From Candidatus Daviesbacteria bacterium (GTDB lineage: Bacteria; Patescibacteriota; Microgenomatia; Daviesbacterales; UBA10151), in the NCBI GenBank assembly GCA_030699125.1, contig JAUYKM010000011.1, forward strand, positions 36,937 to 100,936: a DNA stretch of 64,000 bases, written 5' to 3'. The notes beneath the pieces were generated by a model that saw only the letters and a list, made by a program, of their open reading frames with translations, had not been told where the DNA came from and did no database searches. How positions within the stretch are numbered: position 1 is the first letter of the stretch; every line of letters begins with the position of its first letter. This document shows positions 18,544 to 59,271 of this stretch, one piece after another. The position numbers and the translations under genes were made by a program.

Positions 18544-19344
18544 GTGCACATGAGCGGGCATTCCAAGTGGTCAACTATTAAGAGGGCTAAAGGTGTGGCA
18601 GATATCAAGCGCGGCCAGACCTTTACCAAGGTAGCCAATGCTATCACCATTGCTGCCAAACTGGGTGGATCAGGGGATCCGGAAGCCAACCCCCGTTTAA
18701 GAATGATTATGGATACAGCCCGCGCTGTCAATATGCCCAAGGAAAATATTCAGAGGGCCATAGATAGGGGATTGGGTAAGCTGCCTGGTCAGACTTTGGA
18801 AGAAGTTCTGTATGAAGGTTTTGGTCCAGGTAGTGTAGCCTTTATAGTAGAAGGCGTTACAGATAATAAGTTAAGAACTTTGCAAGAGGTAAAAAATATT
18901 TTCGAAAAAAATGGAGGGTCATTGGCAGGGCAGGGTAGTGTCTTGTATATGTTTGAGAGATGTGGGGAATTAAGGGTAAAGGGGAAAGGGCTCGCTTCGC
19001 GAAGCGAGGGAAGTATGGAAGATGAGATGTTAGAACTTATTGATTTGGGGTCAAAAGATGTAGAGTCCTTCGACTTCGCTCAGGATTTCGCTGACGCTCA
19101 AGAAAAACAAGGATATTTAGTATATGTAGAAGGCTCAGAATTAAATACTATGGGTACAAAAATTACTCAAGCAGGATTTGGGGTAGAGAGTCAGGAATTG
19201 GTCTATAAACCGCTTAATATGGTGGAAATTACTGATAAAGAAACAGCTGAAAAAGTATTGGATTTTGCAGGGAAGTTGGAAGAGTTAGATGATGTGCAAA
19301 AAGTATATGCTAATTTTGATATTCCGGAGGATTTGGTGCAATGA
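18544..19344 (+). CDS. yebC: YebC/PmpR-family transcriptional regulator
   Basis: MSGHSKWSTIKRAKG...; full length. Probable start at 18550. Contains an 18-bp perfect GC palindrome in frame. Confidence 0.85.
   Translation: MHMSGHSKWSTIKRAKGVADIKRGQTFTKVANAITIAAKLGGSGDPEANPRLRMIMDTARAVNMPKENIQRAIDRGLGKLPGQTLEEVLYEGFGPGSVAFIVEGVTDNKLRTLQEVKNIFEKNGGSLAGQGSVLYMFERCGELRVKGKGLASRSEGSMEDEMLELIDLGSKDVESFDFAQDFADAQEKQGYLVYVEGSELNTMGTKITQAGFGVESQELVYKPLNMVEITDKETAEKVLDFAGKLEELDDVQKVYANFDIPEDLVQ
18991..19008. repeat. Perfect palindrome CTCGCTTCGCGAAGCGAG (family-B-related) in frame within yebC
   Basis: Encodes GLASRSEG. The CTTCGC motif is shared with the other GC-rich elements. Confidence 0.55.
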
Positions 19345-31396: not shown

Positions 31397-31545
31397 AACG
31401 GCCAGGTTAAAATAACGCTATAAAAATTGGGAGATAAAAATGACAAAAATGGCCACTTATAATAAAGAGCAAACAGGGCGGCAAAAATAAATCCCGCTAT
31501 AAAATAAATAATGGCAATTGAGGAGATGATTTTTTCTTTGCTCAT
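31336..31545 (-). CDS. Small membrane protein downstream of gyrA
   Basis: ATGA-coupled to the gyrA stop; two hydrophobic helices. Confidence 0.35.
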
Positions 31546-34106
31546 TCTACTCTTTCTTTTGATGAAACTACTGTGGCTGCAGCCACCTTTTCTCCGTCTC
31601 TCACCCTCATCAGAATCACCCCTTGTGTTTGTCTTTGCAGAGTTGGTACTTGTTTAAGATCCATCTTTATCAGCTGACCTTTGGTGGAGGTTAAAACTAA
31701 AATATCCATATTTTCATCAATGACCTTGGCTGTGACAATCTCGCCTGTTTTAGCAGTGATTTGGGCGGCTTTAACTCCCTGTCCTCCCCTGCCCTGTTTA
31801 CTCCAAGAGGATGTTTTAGTTTTCTTGCCCAATCCTTTTTCCATCACTACCAAAAGTTCTCCTTCTTCCTTTTTTTTGATGATATTTAAAGAAACCACAC
31901 TATCATCTTTGCCTAATTTAATCCCCCTCACACCAGATGTATCTCTGTGAGTTGATTTGACTCCAGCTTCTGAGAATCTGATGCTTTTTCCCATTCTGGA
32001 GACAATGATAATATCATCAGTGCTACTAGTTGGTTGAACCCATCCTAATATGTCGCCAGCATCCAATTTAATAGCCACCAACCCGTTTCTTCTGATGTTG
32101 GCATATTCACCTAAAGTGGTTTTTTTGACAGTGCCTCTTCCCGTACACATGAAGAAGAATTTAGACTCGGTTTCCTTCTCTCTTCGGGTTAGGACTGCAG
32201 TCACCTTTTCACTCTGTTCAACGCTAATTAAGTTAACAATGGCCTGACCCTTAGCTGCTCTTTGGGTTTCCGGAATATCCCAAACCTTAATCTGAAATAC
32301 CCTGCCCCTGTCAGTGAAAAAAAGAATATTGTCATGAGTCTGGGTATAGAAAATATGGGAAACAGCATCGGTTTCCTTGGTGGATATTCCCATCACCCCT
32401 TTGCCTCCTCTTGCCTGAGTTCGGAAAGAGTGAGGAGATTGGCGTTTAATATAGCCTCCTTCGGTGATGGTGACAATAGTCACCTCATTAGGCACTAAAT
32501 CCTCTTCAGAGAACTCCCCCACTTTTTGTTTATAAACCCGGGTTCTCCTGTCATCTGCATACTTTTCTTTAATCTTGATGAGTTCATCCTTAACAACTTT
32601 AAGAATCTTTTCCGGATGAGCTAGAAGGTCCTCAAGATAAGCTATTGTTTCCCTGACCATTTTCAACTCATCTTCTATTTTTTGTCGCTCCAGTGCAGCC
32701 AGCCTCCTTAGCTGCATGTCCAAAATAGCCACAGATTGAATTTCGGTTAATTCAAACTTCTTCATCAAATTAATCTTAGCCTCTTCGGAATCTTTGGACT
32801 TCTTGATAGTTTCAATTACAGCATCAATTGAATCAACGGCAATTTTTAATCCTTCTAAAATATGTTCACGCGAGCGGGCCTCCGAAAGTTCAAACTCCGA
32901 TCTTCTCACGATAACTATCTGTCTGTGGTGAATAAATTGCTCCAGGATATGTTTGAGAGTTAACAGATGAGGCACGCCGTCTGAGAGCGCCACCAGATTA
33001 ACATTAAAAACCGACTGCATGGCAGTGTATTTATAAAGGCTGTTTAAAATAGACTGGGGTCTGCCGTCTCTTTTGAGATCAAAAACAATCCTCACCATCT
33101 GTTTTCTGTCTGACTCATCCCTGATATCAGCAATCCCCTCTAACTTTTTATCTTTAACCAATTCGGCAATTCTGGCAATTAAAGTGGCTTTATTAACCTG
33201 ATATGGTAGTTCTGAAACGATAATTTGCATTTTACCTTGTGCTGTTTCATCAATCTCGGCCTTTGCTCTCATCACAATTCTGCCCTTGCCTGTAGCATAA
33301 GCTGCCAAAATTTCGGATTGGTCATAAATTGAGCCTCCTGTGGGAAAATCAGGACCCTTAATGTGTTGAATGAGATCCTCCACAGTGGCTTCAGACTGGA
33401 AAACACTGTCATTGCGAGGACCCTGTACCATTACGGTACTGGGGGACGAAGCAATCTCTTTATCCGGGCCAGATTGCTTCGCTTCGCTCGCAATGACGGA
33501 TTTTGTTGGATGTTCTATCATGTAGATTAACCCGTCACATACCTCCCCCAAATTATGAGGTGGGATTTGGGTGGCCATGCCTACAGCAATACCAGAGGCT
33601 CCATTTAAGAGTAAGTTGGGTATAACCGATGGCAAGACCACCGGTTCTTGTGTAGTTCCGGAATAGTTATCAATAAAATTAACTGTGTTTTTGGAAATAT
33701 CCCGTAGTAACTCATCAGAGATGACAGCCAGTCTGGCTTCGGTATAGCGCATAGCAGCTGGAGAATCCCCATCTATCGAGCCGAAATTTCCCTGTCCGTC
33801 AATCAGCATATATCTCATGGAGAAATTTTGAGCCATTCTGACCATCGCCTCATAAACCGGAGCATCTCCGTGTGGGTGCAAATTTTTCAAAACCTCACCT
33901 ACCACTGCCGCAGACTTTTGATATCTAGATGTATGGTGAAGGCCTTGCTCATGCATGGCATAGATGATTCTTCTTTGAACCGGTTTTAAGCCGTCTCGGA
34001 CATCAGGCAGAGCCCGGGAAACAATTACAGACATGGCATAGTCAAGGTATGACCTTTGCATCTCTTCTATGATGGGTGTTATTTGAATTTTGCCGATATT
34101 ACTCAT
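31542..34106 (-). CDS. gyrA: DNA gyrase subunit A
   Basis: Full-length GyrA with the active-site Tyr region (AAMRYTE), GPDFPTGG, and C-terminal beta-pinwheel repeats. Carries an in-frame ~100-nt palindromic insertion. Confidence 0.95.
33411..33507. repeat. Family-B nested GC-rich palindromic element inserted in frame in gyrA (encodes [31 protein letters not shown])
   Basis: Outer arms CATTGCGAG/CTCGCAATG and inner arms CGAAGCAATCT/AGATTGCTTCG. Region is ~34 aa longer than E. coli GyrA between the HNL and GPDFPT motifs. Confidence 0.6.
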
Positions 34107-45828: not shown

Positions 45829-46389
45829 GTGAAGTTTTTGAAGAAATCTGCTCAACCATTTAAAGGTTTTACTTTGGTAGAGCTTTTGGTGGTTATTGCT
45901 ATTATTGCTATTTTGGCAGCAGTGGTGGTACTTATTATTAATCCTTTGGAGTTGACCAGAAGAGGAAGGGATGCAGCTAGACTGCAAGACTTGGCTCACC
46001 TTCAACAAGCCATTAACGTGGCCGTACAGGAAGCTACTCAGTCAGGTTCAGACATTCTTTGTAGCGGATCCAGTTATCCTTGCACAGGTGCTTCTCATAC
46101 AGGAACCAGGGATTCTGATGGAACCGGTTGGGTTTTAGTTAATCTAGGATCACAACAAGCTGTATCAGTTCCTACTTTGCCTGCAGATCCGACCAACAGT
46201 ACTGCTTTTCATTATACGTACTGCGCGGATGATGCACCAGGCACCGATGCTTGGGAAATCGACACGGCTTTGGAATCTGACCAACAGTCAGATAAGATGA
46301 CCACAGATGGTGGGAATGAGGATACCAGGTATGAGGTTGGTTCTAATTTGACCATTATTGCCGCCTCAGGTGGAAGTTGCGCATATTAA
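45829..46389 (+). CDS. Type IV (major?) pilin, class III leader
   Basis: MKFLKKSAQPFKG|FTLVELLVVIAIIAILAAVV; Cys pairs in the C-terminal domain. Confidence 0.8.
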   Translation: MKFLKKSAQPFKGFTLVELLVVIAIIAILAAVVVLIINPLELTRRGRDAARLQDLAHLQQAINVAVQEATQSGSDILCSGSSYPCTGASHTGTRDSDGTGWVLVNLGSQQAVSVPTLPADPTNSTAFHYTYCADDAPGTDAWEIDTALESDQQSDKMTTDGGNEDTRYEVGSNLTIIAASGGSCAY

Positions 46390-47305
46390 AGTGGTAGTAA
46401 TAGGTTTTTTATGGGGAACAGTCCTTGGTAGTTTTGTCAAGGCACTGGCCGATCGCAGCTTAACCAAAAGGACTTTTTTGGGAAGGTCATACTGCCCTAA
46501 TTGTAAGAAGGTTTTACGCTGGTATGACCTTCTTCCTATCCTGTCCCATCTTCTTTTAAAAGGTAGATGCAGGTATTGTCATAGGAAGATTGGCGTGGAG
46601 TATGTGGTAGTAGAGGTAGTGATGGGAATTCTGGTGGGCTATCTGTTTTTCCAGACCTTCAATAATTTTCAATCCTTCGACTCACTCAATTCGCTCAGGA
46701 CAAGTTTTCAATTTCTAAATTTATTATTTGAGCTTGTATATAAGGTTTTCTTTATCATCGTTTTGGCAATTCTTTTCCTGACAGACTTGAAAAAAATGAT
46801 AATTCCAGACAGGATTGTTATCCCTTCTATTATTATTGCTTTTTTGGCTTTGTTGGTCATAACCGGCTATAAAATTGGTTACCTTTATTATTATCTTTCA
46901 GCGCATCCCGTTGGTCAGTATCTACTTCCTCCCCACAGCCTGTATTTTCAGGAACATGCTTTAGTTCATTTACAATCATCTGCTTTGGCAGTAGTTTCCG
47001 GTTTGGTTTTGGCATCATTTTTTCTGCTCCTGATTATTATTACCAAAGGTAAGGGTATGGGAGGAGGAGATGTTAAACTGGCCCTCTTCATGGGCTTGGG
47101 ATTGGGTTTTCCTAATATAATAGTAGCAACCATGTTATCTTTTATAATAGGAGCCGTTTTTTCAGTGGGACTAATTATTTTTGGCAAAAAAGGTTTTAGG
47201 TCAGTTATTCCTTTCGGACCATTTCTGGTCATCGGATCTCTCCTGGCCTTATTTTGGGGAGAGGAAATTATTGATTGGTATTTTCAATTATCCCTACTCT
47301 TTTGA
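46358..47305 (+). CDS. pilD: Prepilin peptidase PilD (A24)
   Basis: CPNC...CRYC zinc motif, GGGDVKL catalytic Asp motif, polytopic. Confidence 0.85.
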   Translation: MPPQVEVAHIKVVVIGFLWGTVLGSFVKALADRSLTKRTFLGRSYCPNCKKVLRWYDLLPILSHLLLKGRCRYCHRKIGVEYVVVEVVMGILVGYLFFQTFNNFQSFDSLNSLRTSFQFLNLLFELVYKVFFIIVLAILFLTDLKKMIIPDRIVIPSIIIAFLALLVITGYKIGYLYYYLSAHPVGQYLLPPHSLYFQEHALVHLQSSALAVVSGLVLASFFLLLIIITKGKGMGGGDVKLALFMGLGLGFPNIIVATMLSFIIGAVFSVGLIIFGKKGFRSVIPFGPFLVIGSLLALFWGEEIIDWYFQLSLLF

Positions 47306-47928: not shown

Positions 47929-48495
47929 TTGACACTAGAGTCAAACTCTTTCATACTAATATTAGTGAATATTTTACTGCCCCTGAGCGAGACTTCGACG
48001 GTGAGCTCAGTCGAACCGCGAAGTGAGTCGAAGGGTTTTACCCTGATAGAACTGTTGGTGGTGATCTCCATAATTTCCATTTTGGCTACCATCGGTATTG
48101 CTTCTTACCAAGGAGCCCAGAAAAACGCCCGGGATGCCAGACGTAGAAATGATGTAGATGTAATTGCCAAATCATTGGAGGTAAACAAGGCTCAAAATAC
48201 CCTTTATTACCCTATAATTGATCCCACCTGGTTTGAATCAGGTGCTGTACCCATAGATACCACTACTGCCAAATATTGCATTCTGTATAGAGAAAGTGGA
48301 ACTATTGCCAAACCCAATACCTGGCTGACGACTGCTTCCTGTCCTCCGGCGGTAGAGGGAGATACAAATGTGGCGGCTATTCCTGCAACCGGTAATGTGC
48401 CGGTTGTTGTTCCCGGCTATGCTGTCTTTAAAATTTGCGCCAGACTGGAACAAGGTACCCAACCTAATATTTTCTGCCGCAGCAATATCCAATGA
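47929..48495 (+). CDS. Prepilin-type protein with atypically long leader containing a GC-rich hairpin sequence
   Basis: ...SESKG|FTLIELLVVISII. The 5' region carries GAGCGAGACTTCGACGGTGAGCTCAGTCGAACCGCGAAGTGAGTCGAAG. True start uncertain (in-frame GTG at ~47989). Confidence 0.65.
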   Translation: MTLESNSFILILVNILLPLSETSTVSSVEPRSESKGFTLIELLVVISIISILATIGIASYQGAQKNARDARRRNDVDVIAKSLEVNKAQNTLYYPIIDPTWFESGAVPIDTTTAKYCILYRESGTIAKPNTWLTTASCPPAVEGDTNVAAIPATGNVPVVVPGYAVFKICARLEQGTQPNIFCRSNIQ

Positions 48496-49031
48496 AAGTT
48501 AGTAGCGGTTTTACTTTAATAAGGACCTGCTTCGCTTCGCGATATGAGAAATTGTATCACTCACTCGCAGAACCCTGTAAGGGTTTTACCCTTATAGAAC
48601 TTCTCATAGCCGTATCCATTATTGCTCTGCTTATGACGATTGGCGCTATCTCTTATATGGGGTTTTTAAGAACAACCAGAGATACCTCCAGACAAACTGA
48701 TTTAAAAACTATCCAGTCTGTTTTGGAGCAATACCATGCTGATTTACACTTTTACCCCACTGCCCAATTTACTTTTGCCGGTCAAAGGTTTACCAATGCT
48801 TCAGGCAGAGCCGGAAACCCCCAGGTAACTAAAACTTATTTAAACAACACACCTAAAGAACAATGGACTCAAACTGCACCTTATTTATATGTGCCACTTC
48901 CCGCAGGATGCGGTGAAGTTGCTCCGCTTTGTTCCAACTACTGTTTATATGCTCGTTTAGAAGGAACAAGCCCTGGATTAGGCAGCTGTGCTACTCAGAC
49001 AGTTTATAACTATGCCGTCAGCCAACCATGA
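48492..49031 (+). CDS. Prepilin-type protein whose leader is interrupted in frame by a 51-nt MITE-like element plus ~19-bp duplication
   Basis: MKVSSGFTLI-[RTCFASRYEKLYHSLAEPCK]-GFTLIELLIAVSII. Removing the element plus one repeat restores a canonical prepilin. Confidence 0.7.
   Translation: MKVSSGFTLIRTCFASRYEKLYHSLAEPCKGFTLIELLIAVSIIALLMTIGAISYMGFLRTTRDTSRQTDLKTIQSVLEQYHADLHFYPTAQFTFAGQRFTNASGRAGNPQVTKTYLNNTPKEQWTQTAPYLYVPLPAGCGEVAPLCSNYCLYARLEGTSPGLGSCATQTVYNYAVSQP
48523..48573. repeat. Family-B MITE-like element GGACCTGCTTCGCTTCGCGATATGAG...CTCGCAGAACC with imperfect TIRs (GGACCTGC/GCAGAACC), flanked by direct repeats GGTTTTACYYTAATAGAA
   Basis: ~75% identical inverted copy at 58792-58846. 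Confidence 0.65.
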
Positions 49032-49567
49032 AAAATTTTGGTTATACTTTAATAGAACTAATGGTAGGAGTGTCAATTCTAGCTATTTTTTCCGTAGTGG
49101 CTCTTTTGCAATTCCGCACCTTTGGTGAAGATAAAATTCTTACCTCAGCTGCAAATGATGTTCAATCTTTTATCCGGACAGCACAGACCAATGCTTCAAC
49201 AGGAGTACTTTGTACCGGCAATGGTGGGGCATCCTGGAGTGTGGTTATAAATACCAACCAGATAAATATGGACCATCTATGTAGCTATGGAGACCCGCCT
49301 GTAACATTTACTCCCCCCAATAATCTAAAGCTGCCTCCCAATATTATAATAAACTCCATGGTTTCCCCTTTTTGTCAGTCTGTTTATCCCCAGATGGGTG
49401 GAGCTTTAACTTTAATCTATGCTCCGATAACCGGAGGAGTAACATTTGAAACACAAGAACAATGCATTAAAGACGGAGTGAATCTGACTATTACTTTGGT
49501 AAACACCAAAACAAGTACTTCTAAAGATGTTATTATAGATAAAGGAGGTGCGGTGGATGTTAAATAG
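49028..49567 (+). CDS. Pseudopilin/minor pilin
   Basis: MKNFG|YTLIELMVGVSILAIF. Confidence 0.7.
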   Translation: MKNFGYTLIELMVGVSILAIFSVVALLQFRTFGEDKILTSAANDVQSFIRTAQTNASTGVLCTGNGGASWSVVINTNQINMDHLCSYGDPPVTFTPPNNLKLPPNIIINSMVSPFCQSVYPQMGGALTLIYAPITGGVTFETQEQCIKDGVNLTITLVNTKTSTSKDVIIDKGGAVDVK

Positions 49568-57583: not shown

Positions 57584-58034
57584 TTTTTATTTCCTCTTTC
57601 GGTGCTTCGGCCTCCTTCTGATCCACTGATTCAGTGGCTTCTGATTCTACCTCTTTTGCAGGGGCTTCTTTTGTTTTTTGTTCATCTGCGGGTTGTTCTG
57701 ATGAGGTTGGTTCAGCTGTTTCTGTCTTTTCTGCTATCTGAGGACTGATAGCTGCTGGCTGTTCTTCTTTCTTTTCCTTCTTAGGCTTTCTGGGTAGCCT
57801 TTGGGGGGCTTTGCCAATAATTCTTAAAAATCCAGTACTCATCTGGGCTCCCTGCTTTGTCCAATGATCAATTCTATCTTGCTTAAGCTTGATATCTTTT
57901 GGTTCGGTTAAAGGATTATAAGTTCCCAAAAGTTCCAAATAAGCACCGGTTCTTTTGGCCCGTTCATCAACCACTACCACCCGATAGAATGGCCTCTTCT
58001 TTGCCCCTATTCTCATTAAACGGATTTTTAACAT
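57567..58034 (-). CDS. rpsP: 30S ribosomal protein S16 with Ala/Glu/Lys-rich C-terminal extension
   Basis: MLKIRLMRIGAKKRPFYRVVVVD... Confidence 0.9.
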   Translation of the reverse strand: MLKIRLMRIGAKKRPFYRVVVVDERAKRTGAYLELLGTYNPLTEPKDIKLKQDRIDHWTKQGAQMSTGFLRIIGKAPQRLPRKPKKEKKEEQPAAISPQIAEKTETAEPTSSEQPADEQKTKEAPAKEVESEATESVDQKEAEAPKEEIKNEGTA

Positions 58035-58052
58035 GGAGGTAAGTATAAAGGA

Positions 58053-58736: not shown

Positions 58737-58791
58737 GTTTTTAATTCCTCCTTAAAAATATAATAGCCTTAGAATTAAAAAGGCAAGGTTC

Positions 58792-58846
58792 TGCAAGCAC
58801 GAGCTAAAATATCTCATAGCGAAGTGCGAAGCAGGTCCTTATAGTA
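58792..58846. repeat. Family-B MITE-like element, intergenic inverted copy of the 48523-48573 element
   Basis: GGTTCTGCAAGCACGAGC...GCGAAGTGCGAAGCAGGTCC; ~75% identity to the reverse complement of the pilin-leader copy. Confidence 0.6.
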
Positions 58847-58868: not shown

Positions 58869-58946
58869 TATAATGATACTAAAATTAGTCAAACCACTGA
58901 ATGGCCTCTTCTTTGTCCCTATTCTCATTAATCTAATTTTTAGCAT
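58869..58946 (-). pseudogene. Diverged duplicate of the rpsP 5' end (MLKIRLMRIGTKKRPFS...)
   Basis: nt 58899-58962 are ~85% identical to nt 57987-58050. Confidence 0.6.
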
Positions 58947-59271
58947 GGACATAAGTATAGCTTAAGCTGGATCAAGCGTCAATAAAGAAACTAGAATTAT
59001 AAACGACCTATAATATTGATATTTAAATTCAAATTTGATAAAATTAACAATAATATGGTTGAAAATAAGGATAATATTTATTTTGGAGGTATTTACTTTG
59101 ATCAAAGAAAAGGTTTGGAAGGTGTCGTGAAGCTCCTTGTTTCTAGCCTGCTTGCACCTGGTGTAGCCCAACTGCCAGATCCTCCACGCTTACCAGATAC
59201 TAGGGAATATTTGTATTTAAAAAATATCTATGATTTATGCCAGACCTACCAAAAAAAAGGTGGTAGAGTAA

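Follow-up and report, generated by a model that had tools for sequence, protein, structure and literature searches.

The pilin gene discussed here raises the question of how a signal peptide came to be split between two copies of its own cleavage motif, and whether a pilin can still be made from it. The gene, here called pil3, lies in a 64,000-nt stretch of Candidatus Daviesbacteria DNA (contig JAUYKM010000011.1 of assembly GCA_030699125.1, positions 36,937 to 100,936 of the forward strand), which is referred to in full as the window and has a GC content of 39.6%. It was delimited from the list of open reading frames (ORFs), from Pfam and from its overlap with the preceding pilin gene, pil2 (47965–48495, + strand), as a gene for a protein of 179 aa at 48492–49031 on the + strand. 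The ATG at 48492 overlaps the stop codon of pil2 (ATGA), and the same overlap is present in the related contigs L001 and L004. The translation, MKVSSGFTLIRTCFASRYEKLYHSLAEPCKGFTLIELLIAVSII, starts with MKVSSGFTLI, continues with RTCFASRYEKLYHSLAEPCK and then with GFTLIELLIAVSII, GFTLIELL opening the second site. The initial annotation had read the leader as MKVSSGFTLI-insert-GFTLIELL, which is exact by translation of the ORF 48492–49031.

Three parts can be distinguished in the leader, all on the + strand. The first GFTLI-coding copy, GGTTTTACTTTAATA (48507–48521), is situated inside the leader, continues as RTCFASRYEK..., has no hydrophobic helix behind it and gives no N_methyl match. It is followed by an inserted block of 60 nt (48522–48581), which encodes RTCFASRYEKLYHSLAEPCK, and by the second GFTLI-coding copy, GGTTTTACCCTTATA (48582–48596), which restores G|FTLIELL (the bar marking cleavage) ahead of the hydrophobic helix, with a predicted PilD site after G31. 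At 12 of the 15 positions the two copies have the same base, and the remaining three differ synonymously.

Comparison of the window with five related contigs (L001, L002, L004, L005 and L006) showed the block to be derived. It is inserted in frame and belongs to a family of dispersed repeats. The block was missing from all five, each of which had a single GFTLI copy, and the BLAST alignments of all the relatives to the window stopped at 48521/48531 and restarted at 48582. In the nearest relative (L001/L002; 91.6% nucleotide identity across the upstream pilin gene) the leader reads ATGAAAGTTAGTTATGGCTTTACTCTTATAGAACTGCTC, i.e. MKVSYG|FTLIELLIAVSII, while the leaders of L004, L005 and L006 read MKENRG|FTLIELL, MPKESG| and MPRSRG|, respectively. 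Also in a protein search the four pil3 orthologues found (137–154 aa) aligned from residue 30 onward only, whereas an NCBI Daviesbacteria entry encoded on a contig of 150 kb was 100% identical to the pilin. The uninterrupted prepilin that had been predicted to result from removing the element together with one repeat is thus an allele actually present in the relatives, and the proposed search for an empty site found it in all five contigs, with the alignments breaking at the insert borders. The dimensions given earlier, an element of 51 nt and a duplication of about 19 bp, have to be revised: the window allele has 75 extra nucleotides in comparison to the empty site, consisting of the 60 nt of 48522–48581 and the 15 nt of the second GFTLI copy, and 15 nt is the credible length of the duplication. 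Judged from the sequences compared, the insertion is lineage-specific but not fresh, since a relative with about 92% identity in the adjacent pilin gene does not have it.

The repeat family was identified by a scan with GGACCTGCTTCGC-N20-45-GCAGAACC in which each bacterial species was represented by a single genome. The scan produced 45 loci, including about 30 clear family members of 51–53 nt, with up to three per contig in more than 20 genomes, on AT-rich contigs of metagenome-assembled genomes (MAGs) titled Daviesbacteria, Microgenomates or 'Patescibacteria group'. A full copy has 78 nt and is composed of a rod-like hairpin 1 (ca. 56 nt) and a hairpin 2 (ca. 20 nt). The rod AAGG(AC)CUGC(UUC)GCAC(UUC)GGUA-loop-UACC(UC)GUGC(UC)GCAG(AA)CCUU was found in every member, while hairpin 2 has the form CCUUnnnn, short loop, nnnnAAGG or ACG, its arms varying among the copies yet remaining complementary. 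When folded separately, the members other than the pil3 copy had minimum free energies (MFE) between -12.8 and -23.1 kcal/mol. The covariance model R1, for which the members served as the basis, recovered 33 copies in the collected DNA.

RNAalifold applied to a MAFFT alignment detected the outer helix alone, since the two subtypes differ in the placement of the internal loops, and covariation was checked on 18 members aligned without gaps, to which the structure was applied. In this way 94.8% of the cells were paired, against 18–47% with slid partners. Three pairs covaried on both sides (AU/GC 10:7; GC/AU/UA 11:5:2; GC/CG/UA 12:5:1), and a G-U was present at one pair in seven sequences, indicating that folding takes place in one of the strands, either as RNA or as single-stranded DNA. 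The terminal inverted repeats AAGGACCTGC / GCAGAACCTT pair in all members (93.8% paired) but are invariant, and this outer helix is uninformative in either direction.

Most family copies are intergenic. The upstream ORF ended exactly at the TAA before GGACC in seven of 31 members and within 13 nt in six more, the next gene began 0–51 nt past the core, right after hairpin 2, in 15 of 31, and the surrounding ORFs put about 24 of 31 copies in sense orientation. From their N-terminal sequences we take the genes downstream of family copies to be those for CarB, PyrG, DnaK, PheT and S6. A riboswitch or other cis-regulator was rejected as the identity of the family because the downstream genes are unrelated housekeeping genes and copies are present also inside ORFs. 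No Rfam family was detected at gathering thresholds across the whole window, and a scan with E ≤ 10 around the second, intact window copy gave chance matches only, none of them over the hairpin core. Neither a transposase nor a partner insertion sequence came to light for the family, but insertion sequences, RAYT and TnpA were not searched for. Viral contigs were discarded as carriers, the one match being in GC-rich DNA, of atypical length and judged due to chance.

Three copies of 78 nt were located in frame inside other genes: in the genes of DNA polymerase I (L007 7055–7132), RecJ (L034 3204–3281) and a histidine phosphatase (His_Phos_1; L047 2523–2600). All three translate as KDLLRSRSEDSI(T/A)LARRTLP.... 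In ten orthologues of polymerase I precisely these 26 residues are missing, and no duplication was present at the junction, so the copy is a clean 78-nt insertion and the family lacks the target-site duplication that defines a MITE (miniature inverted-repeat transposable element). Also among the flanks of the 33 copies, the best direct-repeat matches were distributed as in the permuted null. Of the earlier description as a MITE-like insertion, the dispersed repeat inserted in frame therefore stands, while a long target duplication cannot be kept as a property of the element. The first hairpins of the three in-frame copies are almost identical, and the arms of hairpin 2 differ but are fully complementary (TTTTTC/GAAAAA, TCGCC/GGCGA and TCTGC/GCAGA). 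By a hand count with boundaries set by eye, most full-length members are apparently multiples of three.

The copy in pil3 has decayed. It includes a degenerate hairpin 1 (core GGACC...GAACC, 48523–48574) followed by CTGTAAG, while the usual second hairpin is missing. Its R1 score (46.4 bits, E=1.4e-10) was the lowest of the 33 members, and its MFE of -10.1 kcal/mol was no better than that of shuffled sequences (z=0.0). In comparison to L013, which represents the closest subtype (RTCFASRYQKFYRSLAEPCF), it has two G-to-A changes, both breaking stem pairs. In place of hairpin 2 there is a 10-bp hairpin, CTGTAAGGGT-TTT-ACCCTTATAG (48575–48597, + strand), in which the last bases of the insert pair with those of the second FTLI codons; it was present in both the MFE and the centroid structures of 48480–48640, and is based on the palindromic codons AAG GGT TTT ACC CTT. 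The leader regions of pil3 and pil2 were not unusually structured (z = -1.4 each). These features argue that the pil3 copy is decaying passenger DNA and not a maintained RNA element. The broken pairs, the weak fold and the loss of hairpin 2 also indicate that the event is not very recent, and the initial annotation's 'recent' is further contradicted by the three differences between the GFTLI copies and by the lowest model score. A tRNA or attachment-site origin was discarded, no tRNAs being present in the window.

The reading frame used in pil3 is another than that of the polymerase I, RecJ and phosphatase copies. It is open in 19 of 32 members, which share the peptide type RTCFALRYE..LAEPC., and both cysteines are thus features of the family. 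The two cysteines reported earlier as added by the insert are indeed there, but their codons belong to the repeat consensus.

Downstream of the insert pil3 has the N-terminal motif of a type IV prepilin. Prepilin peptidases require a glycine at -1 at the cytoplasmic edge of a hydrophobic helix, and the second site, KG|FTLIELLIAVSIIALLMTIG, has G at -1, F at +1, E at +5 and a hydrophobic helix of about 20 residues. Pfam N_methyl (PF07963) matched aa 29–50 only, that is, the second site, above the cut-off (E=8.4e-10), and T2SSG matched aa 59–134. For the mature part the ratio of nonsynonymous to synonymous divergence (dN/dS) against L001 was 0.12, which points to purifying selection and is consistent with a working gene. 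The synonymous divergence itself was about five times higher in pil3 (dS 1.30; 48582–49031 against L001 978–1400) than in the adjacent pil2 (0.26; 48034–48495 against L001 505–966), a difference that points to recombination in the pilin array or to the replacement of an allele there.

Also the genomic context includes the machinery for processing. The type IV pilus cluster spans 41.7–56 kb of the window and contains two T2SSE ATPases, PilC (T2SSF), a pilin, PilD (46358–47305) and a run of pilin and minor-pilin genes. PilD, with the Pfam domains A24_N_bact at aa 19–99 and Peptidase_A24 at aa 131–269, is therefore encoded in the same cluster as pil3, together with PilB, PilT and PilC, so that a cognate peptidase and assembly genes are at hand.

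The interpretation that we favour, with a probability of roughly 0.75, is that a selfish repeat resembling the Rickettsia palindromic elements (RPEs) entered a pilin leader that is cleaved off, and that it is read through and removed by the peptidase. An RPE-like or REP-like hairpin element (REP, repetitive extragenic palindrome) of Candidatus Daviesbacteria and related members of the Candidate Phyla Radiation (CPR) would have entered codon 10/11 of pil3 in sense orientation, and since the 75 nt added are a multiple of three, the frame would have been preserved. Translation would start from the ancestral ATG 48492, coupled to pil2 through ATGA, and would pass through the insert, giving a leader of 31 residues. 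Given the conserved ATGA-coupled start and a stop-free, in-frame insert, read-through is the simplest expectation. The prepilin peptidase would then cut after G31, at the second G|FTLIELL only, because this one alone precedes the hydrophobic helix, and the whole insert would be discarded. The mature pilin would probably be the same as that from the uninterrupted allele. The choice of start codon, cleavage at the second site and neutrality of the insert are all predictions made from the sequence. In this scheme the leader would act as a safe harbour, where insertions survive as they are removed at maturation, and this would also explain the unrelated repeat in the leader of pil2.

Several observations weigh against this interpretation. 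The family makes no target duplication, and the 15-nt duplication thus needs a separate explanation. In comparison to the empty-site allele, all three changes in the first GFTLI copy are synonymous, and that copy may still be constrained or may have been converted from a paralogue. In this pilin group, where the relatives have leaders of 5–12 aa, it is unusual for a leader to have 31 aa, a GFTLI motif, two cysteines and a net charge of only about +3, and the leader of pil2 becomes net negative with its own insert; processing or membrane insertion could be impaired. Furthermore, the 64-kb window contains just two copies of the family.

In one model of its origin, the 15-nt duplication accompanied the insertion and was retained by selection, because a pilin whose helix had no G|FTLIELL restored beside it would have been lost. 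We give this model a slight preference over recombination, mainly on parsimony. The recombination alternative, which we consider unlikely but the best of the alternatives, assumes a one-sided event in which a patch consisting of the repeat, AAG and GGTTTTACCCTKATAGAACT was acquired from the 5' end of another pilin gene, either of the same genome or from DNA taken up. The right join would have been made by homology in the GFTLIELL codons and the left one illegitimately at ...AATA, leaving two non-identical copies. Such an origin does not depend on target duplications, which the hairpin family does not itself produce, and the three synonymous differences in 15 nt are easier to understand if the copies never were identical.

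Patch conversion among the N-termini of paralogues in this lineage is indicated by the match pattern of pil2. Around the Gly codon (-3 to +21) pil2 is identical to the second pil3 copy in 22 of 24 positions, whereas with its own orthologue it shares fewer than 18 of 24 across the Gly stretch but 22 of 24 in the next 24 nt. The sequence AAGGGTTTTACCCTKATAGAACT is correspondingly nearly identical at 48034–48057 (pil2) and 48579–48601 (pil3) and unlike the orthologue of each gene, which is evidence that the N-termini of the pilin genes have undergone gene conversion. The first pil3 copy, in turn, is identical in 14 of 15 bases to the pilin gene downstream, at 49040. On the other hand, no donor pilin with the repeat fused to its leader was present among 38 homologues, and the second copy did not diverge from L001 pil3 more than the DNA downstream of it does; with 15 nt there is no statistical power to separate recombination from a duplication model. 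The repeats of pil2 and pil3, though unrelated, both end with AAGG directly before GTTTTACC.

According to another and somewhat less probable alternative, the insert is not translated as part of the leader, but pil3 starts inside it, at TTG 48552 (MYHSLAEPCK|GFTLIELL). The leader would then have 10 aa, MKVSSGFTLI would be an untranslated relic or a short upstream frame, and pil2 would correspondingly start at GTG 48001 (MSSVEPRSESK|G). Both codons are in frame and at a suitable distance from G-1, the gene caller gave pil2 a length of 164 aa on the Logan assembly L003, equal to a start at GTG 48001, and family members normally sit immediately 5' of start codons. However, the ancestral ATGA-coupled start 48492 is intact and conserved in the relatives, no convincing Shine-Dalgarno sequence was read before TTG 48552 (GAGAAA only), and the insert, which has no stops and continues the frame of the upstream ATG, would not need to do so if it were left untranslated. 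In pil2 the residues NI(F/L)LP after GTG 47965 are conserved across three relatives, and a promoter-like site has its end 7 nt upstream of this codon.

A function of the two-hairpin element as an intercistronic RNA module, acting in processing, stability or translational coupling and co-opted in pil3 for pilin expression, seems to us improbable. The regular placement between an upstream stop and the next start (seven and six more of 31; 15 of 31), the sense orientation of most copies (about 24 of 31) and the G-U pairs marking the folding strand are in agreement with such a role. The downstream genes are unrelated, though, copies occur inside polymerase I, RecJ and phosphatase genes, and no Rfam family matched; also the pil3 copy, with its two broken pairs, z of 0.0, lowest score and no hairpin 2, is a poor candidate for such a module.

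A still more remote variant, to which we attach very little weight, is that some ribosomes hop over the insert from ATA 48519 to ATA 48594, yielding MKVSSG|FTLIELL beside the long form, and that the layout of the family reflects a CPR-specific intercistronic translation module. The pil3 insert has a hairpin right at ATA 48519, AAGGG upstream of ATA 48594 and GFTLI on both sides. The ATA codons match as in programmed bypassing, but the gap between them is open, in frame and without a stop. Finally, a chimeric join through the repeat by assembly or binning is the least credible explanation of all, since even though dispersed repeats such as this can mislead assemblers, the Logan assembly L003 (SRR13727534) is 100% identical to the NCBI MAG across 12,991 bp, both leader inserts included, so that the structure was obtained with more than one assembler, the two copies in the window, with an identity of only about 78%, cannot collapse, and both flanks are of the same gene, in frame and matching the L001 orthologue on both sides.

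The favoured interpretation, a selfish repeat read through and removed with the pilin leader, finds its closest parallel in the RPEs. These are short palindromic repeats dispersed between genes and in frame within genes, the first reported being about 150 bp long (PMC10969869). Like them, the repeats described here are intergenic or in frame in unrelated housekeeping genes, where they add a conserved peptide while the host protein is preserved, as in polymerase I, RecJ, the histidine phosphatase and the pilin, and as repeats of other types do in GyrA, in PilD and in a YebC-like gene. They differ from RPEs in their host (CPR/Patescibacteria), in their length of 56–78 nt and in having two hairpins, and the likeness meant is one of function, a relationship in sequence not being expected. 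Many of the CPR copies also span the distance from a stop codon to the next start codon, and the pilin copy is in a cleaved signal peptide. RPE-like in-frame palindromic repeats are thus known from Rickettsia, and are here found in CPR and in a signal peptide that is cleaved. Targeted searches of full-text literature and Rfam gave no description of in-gene hairpin repeats in CPR, and nothing relevant for the repeat core.

Other known systems are similar in part. With MITEs such as Correia and ERIC the family shares the small size, non-coding nature, multiple copies, a hairpin base resembling terminal inverted repeats (AAGGnnCTGC / GCAGnnCCTT) and in-frame fusions, but not the target-site duplications. 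REP/BIME repeats (BIME, bacterial interspersed mosaic element), which are mobilised by RAYT transposases, and palindromes derived from IS200/IS605 are likewise strand-specific imperfect hairpins with a 5' motif (here ATAA), no target duplication and a mostly extragenic location, while the hairpin of the present family is longer than in REP/BIME, rod-like with regular internal loops, and has intragenic in-frame copies. The yeast mitochondrial GC clusters and byp elements and T4 gene 60 resemble pil3 as GC-richer hairpin inserts in coding sequence of an AT-rich genome, and pil3 is flanked by matching codons; however, its insert is open, with no stop after the take-off codon, and the other in-frame family copies are without matching flanks. 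In type IVb pilins and similar prepilins the G|F/M...E site is preceded by a leader of about 30 residues. The long leader of pil3 differs from these in being a lineage-specific accident in a short-leader pilin family.

The copies indicate that streamlined CPR genomes carry hairpin-repeat families inside essential genes (gyrase, DNA polymerase I, RecJ, PilD and pilins). For annotation, they account for odd long leaders, GC-rich patches and peptides of the type RTCFA..LAEPC or KDLLRSRSEDS in CPR proteins, and the covariance model R1 can be used for a census of the family. For pilus biology, the pil3 leader offers a natural test of the amount of additional sequence, a decoy GFTLI included, that a class III signal peptide and its peptidase tolerate, and it suggests that cleaved leaders may be safe harbours for selfish DNA.

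The insert in pil2 belongs to a different repeat type. The initial annotation's long GC-rich leader of this neighbour corresponds to a lineage-specific GC-rich insert, but the gene starts at the conserved GTG 47965 and not at TTG 47929. The latter, the mechanical start of the ORF, belongs to a promoter-like site (TTGACA-17-CATACT, 47929–47957), of which it forms the -35 hexamer and which a promoter scan placed with its end 7 nt 5' of the GTG. The N-termini of the orthologues read V-NIFLPKIFGRR|G (L001), NIFLPKIFSKR|G (L005) and DIFLPTSIKLR|G (L004), while the window gene reads NILLP-LSETSTVSSVEPRSESK-G and has a leader of 23 aa, 17 of which replace 6 aa of the relatives; its N_methyl domain is at aa 22–43. 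The 51 nt encoding LSETSTVSSVEPRSESK (47983–48033, + strand) replace 18 nt (KIFGRR) of the relatives, and the 57-nt stretch that holds them (47977–48033) has a GC content of 61%. The tandem arrangement upstream of the L001 pil2 orthologue is different from that of the window: three tandem CTTGACACCA (three -35-like boxes) are present at L001 410–440, where the window has a single TTGACA.

The termini of the pil2 insert, CCTGAGCGA...GTCGAAGG, recur reverse-complemented in an insert in PilD; they recur also at 19058–19095 in the YebC-like gene, and two blocks of the pil2 insert recur in the insert of L041. The PilD repeat is GC-rich and in frame (46674–46702, + strand), is placed between A24_N_bact and Peptidase_A24, and reads FDSLNSLRT against three residues in the L004 orthologue, a net gain of six. 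In L041 (3335–3391) a GC-rich repeat of the pil2 type is nested exactly between hairpin 1 (GCAGAACC) and hairpin 2 (TTGCCTTTTT), which shows that the two repeat families insert into each other.

In-frame GC-rich repeats are a general trait of this genome. The GyrA gene (31542–34106, - strand) has an in-frame hairpin repeat at 33435–33505, GACGAAGCAATCT...AGATTGCTTCGCTTCGCTCGCAATGACGG, encoding VIASEAKQS...EIASS, which we assume to resemble a type found in hypothetical proteins of many phyla. The YebC-like gene (18544–19344) has two, the palindrome GCTCGCTTCGCGAAGCGAG (KGLASRSEG) at 18988–19010 and GTCCTTCGACTTCGCTCAGGAT (ESFDFAQD) at 19058–19095, and a 22-mer of the latter recurs exactly in another Daviesbacteria genome (L031 6088–6109).

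The second copy of the hairpin family in the window is intact, with hairpin 2, and is situated on the - strand at 58737–58840 (core 58787–58838; R1 89 bits; fold -17.8 kcal/mol). Neither self-BLAST nor an exact or 3-mismatch search with the 60-nt insert revealed a near-identical copy in the window, and this one, about 78% identical to the pil3 insert along ca. 58 nt, surfaced only through k-mer matches. Its end lies at the GTG start codon of a small gene, which has a PIN-domain gene (Pfam) downstream. A direct repeat of 61 nt (88.5% identical; 57987–58047 and 58899–58959) flanks a module of about 900 bp formed by the PIN-domain gene, the small upstream gene and the hairpin copy, and this module may be a mobile or duplicated toxin-antitoxin cassette.

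The Daviesbacteria repeat was present also in MAGs titled 'uncultured Gammaproteobacteria' (L007, L013, L030, L033, L035–L037, L039, L041, L042, L044 and L046). These loci have a GC content of 36–48%, several of them ca. 36–40%. The best named matches of the DNA polymerase I of L007 were from Daviesbacteria, with 71–77% identity; by this comparison the taxonomic label of L007 looks wrong, and the other MAGs so titled are tied in by the repeat alone.

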